Origin: a virus
Lineage: Duplodnaviria; Heunggongvirae; Uroviricota; Caudoviricetes
Length of the DNA stretch: 14,169 nt
IMG/VR virus record: IMGVR_UViG_2698536549_000025
Span: 1-14,169 of that record
Strand: one strand, 5' to 3'
The translations under genes were made by a program, and so were the position numbers. The notes below the pieces were generated by a model. The model ran no database searches. It was given only the letters and a program-made list of their open reading frames with translations, and was not told the DNA's origin. This document shows positions 1 through 6,088 of the stretch, piece after piece (position 1 is the first letter of the stretch; each line of letters begins with the position of its first letter).

Positions 1-1230
1 ATGAGCAGAGCACTTAACAAACTGAGTGACACACAGCTAAGGAAAATCAACGGCACACCCGCCCAAAAAACAGCCTTTCTTAATGACGGTGGAAACCTGA
101 GCGTCAGGCATTCAACCAGCGGCCTTTTAACCTGGTATTTCACATACAGGGCCGGAACGGGAAGAGGGACACAACCTGAACGCGTTAAGCTGGGAAATTA
201 TCCCGATCTGAGCCTGAAAGCAGCCAGGGAAAAAGCCGCACAGTGTCGCGCATGGCTGGCTGAGGGGAAAAATCCACGCTATGAACTGAATTACACCATG
301 CAGGAAGCGTTAAAGCCTGCAACGGTTGGCGATGCGCTCACCTACTGGCTTGAGTCGTACGCAAAGGAAAAGCGCACAGATTACGAATCACTGAAAAGCC
401 GGATCAATAAAAACATAATCATCAAAATTGGTGCTATGCCGCTGGATAAATGCGAGCTACGGCACTGGCTGGCCTGTTTTGATCAGGTGGCAAAGCGAAC
501 ACCTGTTACTGCCGGATTCTTGCTACAGACATGCAAACAGGCGCTTAAATTCTGCCGTAGGCGGCGCTATGCAATCAGCAACGTTCTGGACGATCTGAAC
601 GTGGCGGACGTTGGGAAAAAACCGGATATAAGCGAACGTGTCTTAAGCACCAAAGAACTGGGCGAGTTATTGCAGGCGCTGGATAAAAAAATATTTTCTC
701 CTTACTACGTCGCGTTAATCCGCCTCCTGATTGTCTTCGGAGCCAGGACGGTAGAACTGAGGTTATCGGAGATCAGCGAGTGGGATTTTACCGAAATGCT
801 ATGGACCGTTCCGAAGGAGCACAGCAAAACGAAGGTTGCAATATTCCGGCCCATACCGGAAGCGATCCTGCCGTTCGTCACGCGGCTGGTGGACCAGAAC
901 AGGCACACGGGCTTATTACTGGGGGAAGTGAAACAGGAGGCCAGCGTATCGCAGTACGGCAGATTAGCGCACAGGAGGCTAAAACACCCTCAATGGTCAT
1001 TGCATGACATCCGGCGCACCTTTACAACGATGCTGAATGATTTGGGCGTGGATCCTCACGTCGTGGAGCAGCTTACAGGTCATCAGATGCCAGGGATGCA
1101 ACGAGTCTATAACCACTCCCGTTATCTCGATGCGAAACGTGATGCGCTGGATATGTGGACGGAGCGGTTAGGGATACTGGCGGGAGCACATGAAAACGTA
1201 ACCACGCTACCAGTAACCAGAATAAAATAA
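1..1230 (+). CDS. int: Tyrosine recombinase / phage integrase (P4-like, with N-terminal arm-binding-type domain)
   Basis: 409 aa. N-terminus LSDTQLRKI...DGGNLSVRHS...GLLTWYFTYR resembles the P4-type integrase arm-binding domain; C-terminus has HDIRRTF (H-x-x-R) and VYNHSRY (candidate Tyr nucleophile). ATG is at base 1, so upstream sequence and attL are not visible. Confidence 0.9.
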   Translation: MSRALNKLSDTQLRKINGTPAQKTAFLNDGGNLSVRHSTSGLLTWYFTYRAGTGRGTQPERVKLGNYPDLSLKAAREKAAQCRAWLAEGKNPRYELNYTMQEALKPATVGDALTYWLESYAKEKRTDYESLKSRINKNIIIKIGAMPLDKCELRHWLACFDQVAKRTPVTAGFLLQTCKQALKFCRRRRYAISNVLDDLNVADVGKKPDISERVLSTKELGELLQALDKKIFSPYYVALIRLLIVFGARTVELRLSEISEWDFTEMLWTVPKEHSKTKVAIFRPIPEAILPFVTRLVDQNRHTGLLLGEVKQEASVSQYGRLAHRRLKHPQWSLHDIRRTFTTMLNDLGVDPHVVEQLTGHQMPGMQRVYNHSRYLDAKRDALDMWTERLGILAGAHENVTTLPVTRIK

Positions 1231-1283
1231 TTTTTTTCGTGTTTTTTCAGTATGCGCATACTGGATAAGTGCACAGATACAAC

Positions 1284-1310
1284 GTGAAACAATGTGCAAC
1301 AACGTGACAC
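1284..1310 (+). repeat. Three 10-bp-phased direct repeats (aCGTGAAac / aTGTGCAac / aCGTGACAc) between int and alpA
   Basis: GTGAA at 1284, GTGCA at 1294, GTGAC at 1304, exactly 10 bp apart; same motif family as the right-end array at 13811-13850. Confidence 0.5.
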
Positions 1311-1419
1311 AATCACGAACAAGAGGCCAAAAAGAATACAGATTTATAAGTTACTGATTTTTATTGGTTAACTGGTTTTTTATACATTAGCGAATTACGC
1401 GTTAAAGCGTGCGAAAAAA

Positions 1420-1450
1420 GGCATAAAACAAGATTTTATGCCTTTGTATT
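1420..1450 (+). terminator. Weak terminator-like hairpin (GGCATAAAA/TTTTATGCC) followed by TTTGTATT
   Basis: Inverted repeat 1420-1442 with a 5-nt loop and a T-rich tail; the stem is AT-rich, so termination efficiency is uncertain. Confidence 0.3.
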
Positions 1451-1540
1451 AACATGAATTTAAATGATTTTATCCTGATTATTCCTCTTTCTGTAAACCA
1501 TACGACATCAACATTTGCCATTCACCACACTAGCGGGAAC

Positions 1541-1570
1541 AATACGACACAATAAGACACCTGATGACTC
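1541..1570 (+). promoter_or_regulatory. Tandem 10-mer repeats AATACGACAC / AATAAGACAC (plus a degenerate third) just upstream of the alpA ribosome-binding site
   Basis: Direct tandem duplication with one mismatch at 1541-1560, ending about 25 bp before the alpA start; candidate regulator binding site in the alpA control region. Confidence 0.4.
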
Positions 1571-1594
1571 TTTAAGAAACGAAAGGGGGCAATA

Positions 1595-1783
1595 GTGTTA
1601 AGCACTGATCGGTTTATACGTGAAAAAGAATGCGAAAAGCTAACAGGCCTTAGCCGCTCATGCCGCTACCGCCTGGAAAAGGCCGGACAATTCCCATCAC
1701 GTCGTAAACTTGGCGGGCGTTCTGTTGGCTGGTCTTTATCTGAGGTTTTGGCCTGGAAGGATAGCTGCAAGGCAGTTCACTAA
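1595..1783 (+). CDS. alpA: AlpA-family phage transcriptional regulator / excisionase-like helix-turn-helix protein
   Basis: 62 aa with GTG start preceded by AGGGGG 5 nt upstream. The stretch CEKLTGLSRSCRYRLEKAGQFPSRRKLGGRSVGWSLSEVLAW matches the AlpA/Xis-type MerR-like HTH pattern; position directly after int is typical of P4-like elements and Gram-negative PICIs. Confidence 0.8.
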   Translation: MLSTDRFIREKECEKLTGLSRSCRYRLEKAGQFPSRRKLGGRSVGWSLSEVLAWKDSCKAVH

Positions 1784-1923
1784 AAAGACTGGCGGCACAC
1801 AGTCGCCACACATCCACTAATACAGAGATATAACCATGAAGATTGAATATGCGCCCGAACGTGGGCGGGGATTCGTTCGCCCTGGTGAAACTGAAAAACA
1901 ACAAAATTGGGGTTTTTCAGGCA

Positions 1924-1953
1924 TAAAAAAAGCGGCCCCGATATGGAGCCGCC
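1924..1953 (-). terminator. Rho-independent terminator, probably for the minus-strand RHH gene (possibly bidirectional with alpA)
   Basis: Stem GCGGC (1932-1936) / GCCGC (1948-1952) with the A8 run at 1924-1931 on +, which is a U8 run immediately after the hairpin on the minus strand. Confidence 0.45.
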
Positions 1954-2047
1954 TTTCTGAACAATTAACCTGCTGCGCCTTATGTGTATGTGATCCCAAA
2001 CATAAGCACGGGAATGATAGCCGCTATCAGGCTGGTGGGCAATGTAA

Positions 2048-2239
2048 TTACCCTTTGGGTTCTATGCCGCGCCGCTTTAGTTCTGCCCTGGCTAATTCTT
2101 TAAACCAGTTACCAAGGGTTAGACCGTCAGAAGTTGCAGCTTCATTTACTTGTTGGCGTAGCTCTTTACTGATTCTGATTTGGAAGGTTGGAGACCATCC
2201 CTCACCGCGTGGCGATTTATCGCGCTTTAATGTTGACAT
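2048..2239 (-). CDS. Small ribbon-helix-helix (Arc/CopG-like) DNA-binding protein, candidate repressor
   Basis: 63 aa; PTFQIRISKELRQQVNEAATSDGLTLGNWFKELARAELKR fits a beta-strand/helix/helix RHH layout. It is the only convincing minus-strand gene inside the element and is divergent from the main operon. AGGAG lies 12 nt upstream of the ATG, which is a long spacing. Confidence 0.55.
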   Translation of the reverse strand: MSTLKRDKSPRGEGWSPTFQIRISKELRQQVNEAATSDGLTLGNWFKELARAELKRRGIEPKG

Positions 2240-2261
2240 GTACGTACGTAACTCCTATTAT
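2233..2261 (+). promoter_or_regulatory. Near-consensus sigma-70 promoter (TTGACA, 17-bp spacer, TATTAT) driving rightward transcription
   Basis: TTGACA at 2233-2238, 17-bp spacer, TATTAT at 2256-2261; the -35 hexamer overlaps the start codon of the divergent RHH gene. Confidence 0.6.
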
Positions 2262-2282
2262 CATTTCCGTTACGTACGTACA
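2239..2282. promoter_or_regulatory. Operator: perfect 14-bp inverted repeat TGTACGTACGTAAC / GTTACGTACGTACA, each half containing the 10-bp palindrome TACGTACGTA
   Basis: Palindromes at 2241-2250 (inside the promoter spacer) and 2271-2280 (around the predicted +1), 30 bp centre to centre, bracketing the -10 element. Confidence 0.6.
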
Positions 2283-2371
2283 ATATCAGTAGGTACAGTA
2301 AAAAGCAAAGCCCCGCAAGTGTCGTTACCACTCGCAGGGCTTCTAACCAACAACGTAAACTAGGAGCCGTT

Positions 2372-2569
2372 ATGGTTGCCGTAAATCATACTCCACGACT
2401 AGCACACACACAAACGGCCTTTGTGTGGCGTTTTCTGGCACTGAGTGCCGGAGAATCTCAAATCATCCACGTAACCGCCTGGACGGAACGCGAAGCGCGT
2501 AACCGTTGCCCGTCCGGTTGTGTTGCTGTATTTGCCGCCCGTATTCGCCAGGGGTCACATCATGCGTAA
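2372..2569 (+). CDS. Small hypothetical protein, paralog A (FVWRF ... ARIRQG motifs)
   Basis: 65 aa with AGGAG 5 nt upstream of the ATG. Shares the FVWRF and (V/A)ARIRQG segments and its RBS context with the ORF at 2856-3029. Confidence 0.5.
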   Translation: MVAVNHTPRLAHTQTAFVWRFLALSAGESQIIHVTAWTEREARNRCPSGCVAVFAARIRQGSHHA

Positions 2570-2662
2570 AAACCGCTTGCAAAAAATTATAACGGGGCTG
2601 TATGCTTCCCCCGTCGCCCACATGGCGACCGGGTTTAGCAGCCTGAATACTGTAGCGGACAG

Positions 2663-2691
2663 CCGCTTATATTCCGATATGCGGTTTTTTT
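2663..2691 (+). terminator. Terminator-like hairpin plus T7 run inside the A-B interval
   Basis: CCGC (2663-2666) ... GCGG (2681-2684) with internal AT pairing, followed by TTTTTTT at 2685-2691. It lies inside the in-frame ORF 2562-3029, which makes coding status of that interval doubtful. Confidence 0.4.
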
Positions 2692-2855
2692 GTGTCCGTA
2701 AGCCTACCCATACCCGCATTATGGCGGGGCGTAACGGGGGAGCCTTTGCGCTCGCTGGTTCCTACAGTGCCAGTCTGCTAACCCTGTTACGTCTCGCCAC
2801 CCCGTTTAGCAGCGTAGTAGCGAGACTCCTTAAAATTACTGTAGGAGCCTTTCAC

Positions 2856-3029
2856 ATGGCTGTATCCGCACGCCCTTACTTTGTCTGGCGCTTTATGCAG
2901 TGCCAGGAAAAACAAAGATCACTCTTTACCGTCACGGCAGCAACAGAAGGCGAAGCACGCGCCCAGCTGCCGCACGCACATCTTATTTTTGTCGCCCGTA
3001 TTCGCCAGGGGGAAACCTATGCACAATAA
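2856..3029 (+). CDS. Small hypothetical protein, paralog B; could alternatively be the C-terminal part of a longer ORF starting at ATG 2562
   Basis: 58 aa from ATG 2856 with AGGAG 8 nt upstream; MAVSARPYFVWRF...FVARIRQGETYAQ parallels paralog A. No stop separates it from the upstream frame starting at 2562. Confidence 0.45.
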   Translation: MAVSARPYFVWRFMQCQEKQRSLFTVTAATEGEARAQLPHAHLIFVARIRQGETYAQ

Positions 3030-3279
3030 AACCACACCGGACGCAGCCGCCGAAGCCATCAAAACGCTGATGCACGCGCTGATTGATATTTCTGTTATCG
3101 CGGACAGGGCACATAAGCACGCCACCAGCGAAACAGAATATGCCGGGGCTTTCGTTCCTCACTCACTGGCTGTTATGCAATTTAGTGCTGATATGGCACT
3201 GAATGAGGCTAAAACCATCCTGATTACTGATTGTGAAAATGGGGGGGGGTTATGCTTGATGATCGTTTTAATTCCCTGA
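3019..3279 (+). CDS. Hypothetical protein (reading frame passes through the G9 tract)
   Basis: ATG at 3019 with AGGGGG 6 nt upstream, in the same context as ATG 2562 after paralog A. 86 aa, no recognisable motif. Ends at TGA 3277-3279 after the G9 run. Confidence 0.45.
   Translation: MHNKTTPDAAAEAIKTLMHALIDISVIADRAHKHATSETEYAGAFVPHSLAVMQFSADMALNEAKTILITDCENGGGLCLMIVLIP
3241..3249. repeat. G9 homopolymer tract at the junction of two ORFs
   Basis: Nine consecutive G at 3241-3249, immediately upstream of ATG 3252 and inside the 3' end of ORF 3019-3279. Confidence 0.95.
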
Positions 3280-3485
3280 AACAGGAATTTTCCGGCGTTC
3301 CTGATGATGCGGCTGATGCGCTTTCGTCAATGCCAGAACTTATTAGAGCGGCTTTTTTCTTACTTTCCACGAGAGAATATAAATCAACGGGGCTTGATGT
3401 ACTGAATATCGCCGCCGATTATGCGGAATATGTGGCAGAGGCTCGTTACAGAAGAAAATTTCCTGAGGATGTAAGCCATGCGTGA
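3252..3485 (+). CDS. Hypothetical protein
   Basis: 77 aa; ATG 3252 follows the G-rich tract, which can serve as a Shine-Dalgarno sequence; the stop overlaps the next start (ATGCGTGA). Confidence 0.5.
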   Translation: MLDDRFNSLKQEFSGVPDDAADALSSMPELIRAAFFLLSTREYKSTGLDVLNIAADYAEYVAEARYRRKFPEDVSHA

Positions 3486-3711
3486 TATTTACCACGAAAC
3501 AACAGATCGCGTATTTCTTGCACTTTCTCACAGTGAAAATATGATGGAAATATTGCGGATGTGCCTTGAATCCTTTGGCGATAATGAACGTAATGCAAAA
3601 AAAACGCGGATTATTACATCATTAATAACGCTTCTTGAGCCTGTAATAAATGAGTTGCAGGAAATAGAGACATTGCACGACAGATATAACGAACAGCACA
3701 CCGGAGAATAA
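3478..3711 (+). CDS. Hypothetical protein, AT-rich
   Basis: 77 aa, translationally coupled to the upstream ORF. My hand count gives roughly 38% G+C over this ORF, visibly lower than the neighbouring genes. Confidence 0.5.
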   Translation: MRDIYHETTDRVFLALSHSENMMEILRMCLESFGDNERNAKKTRIITSLITLLEPVINELQEIETLHDRYNEQHTGE

Positions 3712-3716
3712 AAATA

Positions 3717-3929
3717 ATGAAACTTAAATATTCTGGCTTAACTGCCAGTGGCAACACTCACCCTAAATTTACGCGCGGTGATATTNNNNNNNNNNNNNNN
3801 NNNNNNNNNNNNNNNNNNNNNNNNNNNNNNNNNNNCGCGCCGCATAACGTGCCCACCAGCAACGCCAGGGCACGGGCAAACATCCAGAAGCTGAAAACCA
3901 TGATTAACGGATTCAGGGGCAAGAAATGA
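3717..3929 (+). CDS. ORF interrupted by the assembly gap; true structure unknown
   Basis: The reading frame spans the N-run at 3786-3835, so length and frame across the gap cannot be trusted. The downstream part ends in an ATGA overlap with the rep start. Confidence 0.2.
   Translation: MKLKYSGLTASGNTHPKFTRGDIXXXXXXXXXXXXXXXXXAPHNVPTSNARARANIQKLKTMINGFRGKK
3786..3835. other. Assembly gap / masked region (50 N)
   Basis: Run of 50 n characters in the sequence. Confidence 1.
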
Positions 3930-5323
3930 AAAGCGCACCGAACTTAAAAAAACAGCCTTACGACAAGATGACCGAAGTCATCATTTTTGCGGGTAGTGAT
4001 GCGTGGGCACATGCGAAACAGTGGCAGGAACAGGACGGGCGACTGGCTGGCGATAATGTGCCTCCCATTGTGCTGGCTGATGATCAACTGGATGAACTGG
4101 CAGACCTGAGAATCATCGACGAGGGGCGCTATTGTGTCCGGCTGTACAAGGCAGGCCACATCAGGCCATCAAATATTAATGCCATTGCGCACAAGCTGGC
4201 GGCGGCGGGCGTAACTGATGCGAATTATTACCCCGAAGGGATACACAGCCAGAAGCGGGAGAACTGGCGCGAATATCTGGAACGGGAGCGGGGGAAAAAG
4301 CCAGGGGAAGAACACCACCAGCGAAAAACCACGCTACCGATGAGCGTTGGATCTGCCGGATACGACACGCAATTAGATTACGTGGTAAAGGGGATTATTC
4401 CGGCATCGTCGCTATGCAGCATATACGGGGCAAGCGGTTCCTATAAATCATTCCTTGCGGGTTCGTGGGCGTGTCACGTTTCCACGGGCCGCCAGTGGGG
4501 AGGCCGCAGGGTGGCGCATGGCGCTGTTCTCTATGTGGTTGGTGAAGGCGGTATCGGCGTTCCGCGTCGTGTAAAAGCCTGGGAGGTTGTGCACGGTGAG
4601 CAGGTGAAAAATCTGTATCTGGTAAACCGTCCAGTTTTTCCGGCTGTCCCGCTTGATGTTGATGAACTGGTTATCGCTGCCCGTCAGGTGGAGCGGGAAA
4701 CGGGTAAACCTGTACGCATGATTATTCTTGATACTCTGGCGCGTTGCTTTGGTGGCAATGATGAAAATGATTCCCGTGATATGGGGGCGTTTATCCGTGG
4801 GTGTGACGAGCTTAAACGGCGCACAGGGGCCACGGTGCTGGTGGTTCACCATTCCGGCAAGGATGAGACGAAAGGCGCGCGCGGTTCCAGTGCATTTCGT
4901 GCTTCGCTGGATGCTGAATACCGGATACGCAGGGAGGACGCAGGAAGCGAAGCGCTGGTTATCTCATGCACCAAAATGAAGGACGCGGAGGAACTCAAAG
5001 AGGCTGCCTATGATTTGCGGGTGGTGGAGCTTTTTACCGACGCTGACGGGGAGTTAATCACGTCGCTGGTGGTGGTGGATAAGCCGCGCCCTCCCGTTGA
5101 ACTGGAGCGCATCGAGGAGGCAGGCAACAAGACGGAAAACCATACCGCACTATGGGGGTGCATCCGTTCACGCACACAGAACGGCGACAAGTGCACGATC
5201 CCGCTGTTACGTGATGACATGAAACGGCTTGGGTATGACGTGAAAAATATGCGGCGATGGTTAGCCAAACTGGAAAAAGACGCCGTGATTTACATTGATG
5301 GTGATGATGTAGGACCACTGTAA
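3926..5323 (+). CDS. Replication initiator with RecA-like AAA_25 ATPase core (RepA/DnaB-like helicase family); candidate pri-rep equivalent
   Basis: 465 aa. Walker A-like YGASGSYKSF, Walker B-like RMIILDTL and VLVVHHSGKDE are typical of AAA_25-type RepA-like ATPases; N-terminal (~150 aa) and C-terminal (~120 aa) extra domains. AGGGGC precedes the ATG; iterons follow the stop codon. Confidence 0.85.
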   Translation: MKSAPNLKKQPYDKMTEVIIFAGSDAWAHAKQWQEQDGRLAGDNVPPIVLADDQLDELADLRIIDEGRYCVRLYKAGHIRPSNINAIAHKLAAAGVTDANYYPEGIHSQKRENWREYLERERGKKPGEEHHQRKTTLPMSVGSAGYDTQLDYVVKGIIPASSLCSIYGASGSYKSFLAGSWACHVSTGRQWGGRRVAHGAVLYVVGEGGIGVPRRVKAWEVVHGEQVKNLYLVNRPVFPAVPLDVDELVIAARQVERETGKPVRMIILDTLARCFGGNDENDSRDMGAFIRGCDELKRRTGATVLVVHHSGKDETKGARGSSAFRASLDAEYRIRREDAGSEALVISCTKMKDAEELKEAAYDLRVVELFTDADGELITSLVVVDKPRPPVELERIEEAGNKTENHTALWGCIRSRTQNGDKCTIPLLRDDMKRLGYDVKNMRRWLAKLEKDAVIYIDGDDVGPL

Positions 5324-5525
5324 AAAGTGAGTAGCAAAAGTGAGTAATGGTGAGGTTTTTACAAAATATTAACACGATTACTCACTTTCTCACCTGTATA
5401 CATGCTCAAAAGTGAGGAGTAAAAAAATGCTTATGAAACATGCATATATAAAACACGAAAATCTCAAGCGAGACGAAGTGAGACGCGTTAAAAAGTGAGG
5501 CGTAAAAGTGAGCGCGAGTGAGGAG
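5322..5525 (+). repeat. Iteron array (core AGTGAG, mostly AAAAGTGAG) with AT-rich spacers; candidate origin of replication
   Basis: Direct copies at about 5322, 5336, 5349, 5408, 5475, 5491, 5504 and 5517 and inverted copies at 5381 and 5389 (CTCACT/CTCACC); AT-rich stretches at 5355-5380 and 5420-5460; immediately 3' of the rep gene. Confidence 0.65.
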
Positions 5526-5534
5526 ATAACCAAA

Positions 5535-5777
5535 ATGCGCAGAGACAGAACAGCGCCAAAATATAAAGCGTTAGACATGACAGAGCACGCTTTAAAGGTG
5601 GCAATCAGAACGATAGACCGCCACGCGGGGGAAGGATACGCGAAGGAACATCCCGACCTGATAAGCGCATTCATGACCACAGCGGCGGCAAACTTTGCCA
5701 CGCTGACAGAACGGGAGATTGCCGAAGCGGAACAGGTAACAACAATCAACGTTAAAACCGGAGAGGTGGAATCATGA
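5535..5777 (+). CDS. Hypothetical protein (the track's GTG start at 5508 lies inside the iteron array; ATG 5535 with GAGGAG 9 nt upstream is preferred)
   Basis: About 80 aa, acidic and Ala-rich, no recognisable motif; the stop overlaps the next start. Confidence 0.5.
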   Translation: MRRDRTAPKYKALDMTEHALKVAIRTIDRHAGEGYAKEHPDLISAFMTTAAANFATLTEREIAEAEQVTTINVKTGEVES

Positions 5778-6079
5778 GCGAACCAAAATTTGGTGAAAAA
5801 TTTTACAAGCACAACGGACGGATCACGATTCTGCAAATAAGCGCAGCTACACCAGGCTGGTGGGTTGAAACAGACGAAGGATCCTCACCCGTGGCATCAT
5901 GGGCGCTTTGTGTGCTTAGTTACCCTGACCGCGATGTGTATCAGGATATTCTGCCTGTGATATCCACAGACAAAGGCATGAAACCCGTAGACATCAAAAG
6001 CATGGGTTTTCAGTGCGTAATGCTCACTGAAAAAATGATGGAAGAGATGAAAAAGAACAACGCCGGATCGCTTCACTGA
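5774..6079 (+). CDS. Hypothetical protein
   Basis: 101 aa, ATGA overlap with the upstream ORF; no motif recognised. Confidence 0.5.
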   Translation: MSEPKFGEKFYKHNGRITILQISAATPGWWVETDEGSSPVASWALCVLSYPDRDVYQDILPVISTDKGMKPVDIKSMGFQCVMLTEKMMEEMKKNNAGSLH

Positions 6080-6088
6080 GGTGGCAAT

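Follow-up and report, generated by a model that had tools for sequence, protein, structure and literature searches.

The spacer between the integrase gene int and the regulator gene alpA in a capsid-forming phage-inducible chromosomal island (cf-PICI) of Escherichia coli carries two arrays of helically phased ACAA boxes. The same boxes recur upstream of the capsid operon and, in related islands, in both attachment (att) arms, so that five array locations are recognized: distal, proximal, capsid-upstream, and the two arms. The island was analyzed as a window of 14,169 nucleotides (IMG/VR record IMGVR_UViG_2698536549_000025, positions 1 to 14,169), in which the cf-PICI genes int, alpA, RepA-type helicase, major capsid, protease, portal, HNH, and terminase were found. 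Comparison of related sequences indicates that the arrays are selected phased repeats, probably protein-binding, common to the alpA control region, the att arms, and the capsid operon. This reading is much more secure than the assignment of a binder. For the latter we lean toward AlpA, which may use the boxes both for excision and for regulation, in the manner of P2 Cox or 186 Apl.

Phased ACAA boxes in the int–alpA spacer

The spacer (1231–1594) is AT-rich, as an earlier sequence-only reading of this DNA had stated: its G+C content is 35% (30% in the center) against 51% for the whole window. The cores of the distal array start at 1279, 1289, 1299, 1309, and 1319. Steps are exactly 10 bp in this array and 10–11 bp in the others. 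Only two runs of at least three phased ACAA occur in the window, at 1279–1328 and 6795–6845, whereas shuffled windows held 0.016 such runs on average, and none of 500 shuffles produced a run of four or more.

A box profile was built from the boxes of relatives. With it, the distal array scored highest in the window (33.7); the capsid-upstream array came second with 32.8 and the proximal array third with 15.8 over three units. In shuffled windows, the best score had a 95th percentile of 13.7.

The earlier reading had described the spacer repeats as phased CGTGAAA/TGTGCAA/CGTGACA. The strings GTGAAA, GTGCAA, and GTGACA do exist at 1284, 1294, and 1304, but the true unit is the ACAA core; the GTG letters of the proposed GTGA(C)A motif sit in the variable spacers between cores and differ among relatives. 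The tandem 10-mer AATACGACAC/AATAAGACAC that it had reported at 1541–1560 was found again, with 9 of 10 positions identical, and it is a member of the ACAA-box family. Tandem 10-mer loci of this kind number two in the window, with 0.3 expected.

Conservation of the boxes among relatives

Regions upstream of alpA were taken from 78 loci and yielded 57 distinct sequences, which were aligned. An AlpA scan of viral contigs gave 68 loci, which were used; the scan of genome contigs gave three, two of them distant, and was useless for covariation. Conservation across the 57 distinct spacers was 99% in the ACAA columns of the distal array, compared with 73% in the six columns between cores. These spacers comprise 23 distal haplotypes, and 56 of them hold at least three boxes at a 10-bp step. 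The inter-core letters vary freely (CGTG, TGAG, CGGA, TAAG, CAAG, and others), and the consensus of the box unit is about G-R-A-ACAA-Y-G.

The number of boxes is altered in whole units. Relatives have three, five, or six distal boxes, and in the proximal haplotypes GACACAATCC is present one to three times. Compared with the nearest relatives, the proximal array is exactly 10 bp longer in locus L011 and exactly 10 bp shorter in L007. No phased arrays were present upstream of intA and alpA in CP4-57 of E. coli K-12, the source of the original AlpA; this island belongs to a different family and is uninformative.

The same boxes before the capsid operon and in the att arms

The capsid-upstream array begins at the T-run of a terminator hairpin (6783–6802) and lies about 215–260 bp upstream of the major capsid gene (7062). 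A repeat search matched 1298–1322 to 6822–6846 in inverted orientation with 88% identity. The array of about 45 bp is retained as a stretch of identity in L093 and L094, which belong to a diverged cf-PICI lineage, whereas the gene before it, the terminator, and the leader after it are all different there. The array is missing upstream of the capsid-morphogenesis genes of EcCICFT073, and cf-PICIs carry it there.

We also observed that non-capsid-forming relatives (L022 of CFT073, 10300–10410, and L014, 8060–8130), which are without an ACAA array before their capsid-morphogenesis genes, have instead a conserved element, TTGCAAC...TTGC.CAAAATGCAATCATGATTATAAT. It suggests a different activator of the late promoter.

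Near-identical islands occupy four chromosomal sites: roxA/phoQ, tqsA, abgR, and allE/allC. The int of the window and the int of the allE/allC island in E. coli 2012C-4502 share 99.8% identity. Comparison with the empty K-12 site placed one att core about 180 bp to the left of int (GGACATATTT at the roxA/phoQ site) and the second about 190 bp past the right end of the window; both att arms therefore lie outside the window. Many IMG/VR contigs begin, like this one, exactly at the int ATG.

The arms were consequently read in relatives. The complete islands L001, L018, and CFT073 have exactly two further arrays, one per att arm: four to five boxes in the attL arm, just upstream of int, and three in the attR arm. 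In both arms the array adjoins a doubled 12-mer. All four long arrays start with ACAACGTGRAACAA (ACACGTG-type). The same box thus stands at the att arms and before both alpA and the capsid operon; control of the alpA promoter (PalpA) has been published for a 95%-identical AlpA, and for the box a role in it is proposed here as a candidate.

Table 1. Coordinates of the features discussed, in window positions
Feature	Position	Strand	Description
int	1..1230	+	Tyrosine integrase with N-terminal arm-DNA-binding domain; Pfam Arm-DNA-bind_3 3e-18, Phage_integrase 3e-16
Perfect 16-bp palindrome CAGTATGCGCATACTG	1248..1263	none	Preceded by a T-rich tract (1231–1247); lineage-specific
Distal array	1279..1328	+	Five ACAA boxes: ACAACGTGAA, ACAATGTGCA, ACAACGTGAC, ACAATCACGA, ACAAGAGGCC; exact 10-bp steps
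Stem–loop	1417..1445	+	12-bp stem, 5-nt loop; A-run and UUUGUAUU on the flanks
Candidate alpA promoter	1515..1543	+	TTGCCA, 17-bp spacer, AACAAT; from consensus scan
Proximal array	1538..1565	+	ACAA at 1539 and 1549, then degenerate units GACAC and GACTC toward the ribosome-binding site
alpA	1595..1783	+	62-aa excisionase-type winged-helix protein; Pfam Phage_AlpA (PF05930) 5e-18; ribosome-binding site GGGGG 1585–1589
Capsid-upstream array	6801..6845	−	Five phased boxes (TTGT on the + strand)
GTGAC x4	13814..13853	+	10-bp phase; outside the ACAA-box system

The right-end GTGAC array

The spacer repeats and an array near the right end had been read earlier as one family. This did not hold: the GTGAC array scores −5.4 with the box profile, and the cores are ACAA in one case and GTGAC in the other. 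It is missing in L002, L012, L014, L018, and CFT073, all of which retain the spacer arrays, and it is present in 251 E. coli genomes against about 900 with the spacer. In other islands, which have five (L023) or four (L024) units, GTGAC is invariant and the letters between units are variable. The resemblance between CGTGAC and CGTGAC-ACAA in this one sequence is superficial. The motif search in related islands that had been proposed thus found ACAA arrays in both att arms and upstream of the capsid operon, and a GTGAC array that is not conserved. The idea that one protein binds two loci and couples recombination to alpA expression survives in a changed form, since a phased motif is indeed shared by the spacer and the att arms, but the partner of the spacer is not the GTGAC array.

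In several PICIs the GTGAC array stands 3′ of a 93-aa open reading frame (ORF) downstream of the terminase gene. A terminator-like hairpin with a T-run (13901–13925) follows it in the window, and three inverted GTCAC units occur near the right end of the ETEC1734 island (L013).

AlpA as candidate binder

The AlphaFold2 model of AlpA (pLDDT 87) shows helix, helix, wing, helix. Its best structural match is the GIsul2 excisionase (8c3t; 39% identity, TM 0.79–0.86), and RdfS and TorI also match. It is the sole excisionase-fold protein encoded by the island and is 95% identical to the AlpA of EcCICFT073, which activates PalpA and is required for induction, and whose over-expression leads to excision and replication (PMC6092414). 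In a Vibrio satellite, a TorI/Xis-like AlpA is sufficient for excision (PMC10803314), and induction of the cf-PICI prototype, EcCIEDL933, needs alpA (bioRxiv 2022.09.08.507074). Recombination directionality factors (RDFs) bind direct repeats that are spaced by one turn of the helix, and several RDFs regulate promoters as well (PMC7498355). The earlier claim that the spacer is the control region of alpA is supported. No feature of the sequence places the site of action of the helper-phage signal. Our search of the literature on AlpA binding sites, on PDB 8c3t, and on the GIsul2 excisionase found no data on an AlpA site.

It is possible, though we think it rather unlikely, that the arrays are bound by another factor: an inducer from the helper phage, another conserved island protein (YlcI/HicB-like, Icd-like, or DUF4222), or a nucleoid protein of the host, such as H-NS, Fis, or IHF, on the AT-rich spacer. 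Reporters of alpA respond to helper phage even without AlpA (PMC11773190), so some helper-responsive site must be in the region. The alpA promoter of Shewanella is silenced by H-NS (PMC5148205), the spacer has the low G+C content given above, and several small proteins are common to all array-bearing islands. Against this, the arrays lie beside putative Int arm sites in both att arms, a position that calls for an excision factor, and AlpA is the only protein of that fold; for an inducer from the helper, sites there would be unexpected. As to nucleoid proteins, strict 10-bp phasing of a strictly kept 4-bp core is not typical of H-NS, Fis, or IHF sites. The HicB/YlcI-like protein, the island's other small candidate for DNA binding, adjoins an operator of its own, which is palindromic and different from the boxes.

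The HicB/YlcI-like gene (63 aa, minus strand, 2048–2239) has a start codon that abuts a near-consensus promoter, TTGACA-17-TATTAT (2233–2261). The 13-bp inverted repeat GTACGTACGTAAC (2240–2252)/GTTACGTACGTAC (2269–2281) overlaps this promoter, and the whole looks like a separate repressor–operator pair.

The doubled 12-mers and the integrase

Int, the other binder proposed in the earlier reading, could in principle read the arrays as arm-type sites; it would then bind in the att arms, at the alpA promoter, and just 3′ of its own gene. Int carries an arm-DNA-binding domain, arm-type sites are short direct repeats in both arms, and IntS of KplE1 autoregulates through arm sites (PMC2951348). We nevertheless consider this improbable, because a separate doubled 12-mer, found once per att arm, is better placed for that role. 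It lies about 90 bp to the left and about 142 bp to the right of the core; in L001 the doublet, two copies of GGTGTAGTTAAT, is at 2955–2978 and 18798–18821, and L018, L012, and L019 have equivalents.

The doublet is GGTGTAGTTAAT in islands with the common N-terminal domain of Int, GGTGTAGTCACT with the tqsA-type Int, in which residues 1–56 are divergent, and TGTGTGGTCAGT with the rcnR-type Int. The TTGT(TC) arrays are unchanged across all three types of N-domain. The 12-mer follows the N-terminal domain of Int and the ACAA arrays do not; the doubled 12-mers are therefore likely Int arm-type sites, and the ACAA boxes would then be read by another protein, as a single arm domain would hardly recognize two motifs that are unrelated. 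This covariation is what disfavors Int and favors AlpA.

A similar geometry has been reported for the attP of HE-PICIs, where a tandem doubled TGTATTGC of 12 bp, co-oriented, occurs once per arm at 81 and 132 bp from the core. In that study the doubled motif was reported for HE-PICIs only, and its binder was left open between the arm domain of Int and AlpA (PMC10111431). The per-arm tandem doublets are alike in the two groups. In the islands studied here, the doublet changes with the N-terminal domain of Int and is distinct from the ACAA boxes.

Several points weigh against AlpA as the binder. RDF sites classically occupy one att arm, and here arrays are in both. The link between the 12-mer and Int rests on three Int types. 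Among the relatives, we found no instance of AlpA and the box changing in step, as diverged E. coli AlpAs of about 50% identity (L019–L021) keep CGAACAA-like boxes. If the candidate alpA promoter is real, the proximal boxes would span about −12 to +15, which is usual for repression and not for the activation reported; and the distal array is upstream of a terminator-like hairpin, an odd place for an activator site. The AlpA of EcCICFT073 left the activity of the int promoter (Pint) unchanged despite an array just upstream of int (PMC6092414).

Hairpin, promoter candidate, and palindrome of the spacer

The stem–loop at 1417–1445 has a folding energy of −18.9 kcal/mol (z = −4.55). Its pairing, judged by direct reading of the three spacer lineages, is maintained in all of them through G-U changes, with one two-sided change in L009 (GCGTAAAA/TTTTACGC). 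The stem is AU-rich, the tail is merely UUUGUAUU, and the consensus scan did not call a terminator there. It is probably the terminator of int, which would insulate alpA from int read-through.

A conserved terminator-like hairpin between the distal array and alpA could also fit an AlpA that acts as a Q-like antiterminator, loading at the distal array and carrying RNA polymerase through the hairpin into alpA. The AlpA of Pseudomonas aeruginosa does bypass a downstream terminator, but it is a much longer protein, with DNA-reading residues at 128–142 and an N-terminal segment that forms a ring at the RNA exit channel (PMC9371919). The island protein has 62 aa and consists of the winged helix alone, and we rejected antitermination of the Pseudomonas type on this architecture. 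Moreover, the Pseudomonas protein reads one GGGACG, located between −35 and −10, and not a phased array; GGGACG is not present here, and the consensus scan gave no convincing promoter at the distal array. We regard this explanation as very improbable. It is equally hard to credit that the repeats have no protein partner and no specific function, being slippage-prone simple repeats or curved AT-rich DNA, for although the region is AT-rich and the polymorphism in unit number (three, five, or six boxes; ±10 bp) shows replication slippage, neutral drift would not hold a 4-bp core at such conservation between variable spacers, the boxes recur at five functionally meaningful places, and the capsid-upstream array survives as an island of identity amid diverged flanks in L093 and L094.

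In the candidate alpA promoter, the −35 hexamer TTGCCA (1515–1520) is invariant in the 57 distinct spacers, and the 17-bp gap from it to (A/C)ACAAT is preserved in three spacer lineages of differing spacer sequence. The first proximal ACAA box is the −10 hexamer of this candidate, and the proximal array, counted as two to four boxes, extends over the −10 and the start region. The ribosome-binding region upstream of alpA is also conserved among relatives. A minus-strand promoter, TTAACC-17-TATAAA (about 1345–1373), was dropped, since its hexamers are not conserved in relatives.

The 12-bp palindrome GTATGCGCATAC seen earlier at 1250–1261 is part of the perfect 16-mer of Table 1. Palindromes of 12 bp are at chance level in the window (three, with 3.2 expected); those of 16 bp number two, against 0.18 expected. 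The palindrome at 1248–1263 is not present in EcCICFT073-type spacers. We ruled it out as a terminator because a U-run is absent on both strands and because it is unconserved in CFT073-type spacers. The second perfect 16-bp palindrome (14134–14149, center GGGGATCCCC) lies within an unannotated minus-strand ORF of 81 aa (13924–14169), which is kept in islands at several att sites and is not called in RefSeq.

Other features of the window

A search of the whole window against Rfam gave one credible match, a C4 antisense RNA (the P4-type immunity RNA; RF01695, 71.5 bits against a cutoff of 45) in the early region of the island, at 2717–2804 on the plus strand. For 1150–1650, nothing reached the gathering threshold, and the top match had 23.8 bits against a cutoff of 114. 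The small ORFs of the spacer are just chance frames of 21–39 aa. Units of AAAAGTGAG(G), about 84 bp apart at 5321–5534 and directly 3′ of the RepA-type helicase gene, are probably iterons of a replication origin. A run of 50 N at 3786–3835 is a scaffold gap, and ORFs called across it are unreliable.

Proposed mechanism

In the model that we propose, the helper phage would trigger a first burst of alpA transcription. AlpA would then bind the boxes cooperatively and polymerize along the phased array. On its own control region AlpA would establish a positive feedback, as measured for the 95%-identical protein of EcCICFT073. Next to Int on both att arms it would direct excision, and in capsid-forming islands it would also occupy the capsid-upstream array. 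The hairpin at 1417–1445 would most simply end int transcripts and so prevent expression of alpA by read-through. AlpA as the binder and the sign of each regulatory effect are what we infer in this scheme.

A stronger version is offered tentatively, as we judge it doubtful. In it, AlpA would be a single master switch that reads the phased ACAA code at five places for excision, self-expression, and direct activation of the capsid/packaging operon. The int-proximal array and the hairpin would add a further layer of control over int and alpA, for example by looping between the distal and proximal arrays, which are about 26 helical turns apart.

Comparison with known systems

Phased repeats at att sites and promoters are characteristic of Cox and Vis. 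The element is probably of this regulatory kind, with RDF-type phased repeats at att and at candidate promoters, as for P2 Cox, 186 Apl, and P4 Vis. In those systems, a small DNA-binding protein on helically phased direct repeats at both places couples excision to transcription (PMC7498355). There are also differences. Cox and Apl, unlike AlpA, are not PF05930 proteins, and their role at promoters is mainly the repression of lysogenic or early promoters, while AlpA is reported as an auto-activator. The placement differs from that for Cox, Apl, and Vis as well: the arrays described here, as candidate sites, occupy both att arms, the stretch just 3′ of int, and a position before the capsid operon.

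In KplE1 (CPS-53), the attL arm overlaps the int promoter and carries arm-type sites for IntS together with TorI sites, and the RDF gene is transcribed separately (PMC2951348). The present island is similar in that int points inward from attL and its promoter region overlaps the attL arm, and TorI is among the structural matches of AlpA. It is unlike KplE1 in that TorI sites have been mapped experimentally, and in attL, and in that TorI represses intS whereas the AlpA of EcCICFT073 did not affect Pint. We know of no TorI array at a late operon.

EcCICFT073 (roxA/phoQ, strain CFT073) belongs to the same element family and has the same spacer layout: a six-box distal array, the hairpin, TTGCCA, and the proximal array. 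The published work on EcCICFT073 and EcCIEDL933 that we examined does not define an AlpA binding site. With the AlpA of P. aeruginosa, the island protein shares the name, a helix–turn–helix that reads promoter DNA, and a terminator downstream of the site; the Pseudomonas protein is unlike it in its much greater length, its RNA-exit-channel ring, and its single 6-bp element.

Significance

AlpA is the central switch for induction in the phage-inducible islands of Gram-negative bacteria, among them the capsid-forming islands, which pass from one species to another. What is new here is a concrete candidate for the AlpA box, with an ACAA core, a 10-bp phase, and the nucleating ACAACGTGRAACAA, and a map of five sites. 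The mechanism is of a kind familiar from P2, 186, and P4, and in this respect the finding is useful, not surprising. With the box as a simple sequence signature, att arms and promoters under the control of AlpA may be annotated in islands of this family. It makes testable whether AlpA is an excision factor, an activator, or both, why AlpA alone is sufficient to bring about excision, and how the capsid genes of cf-PICIs are switched on. If the reading of AlpA as a master switch were true, an excisionase would be acting as an activator of late genes.

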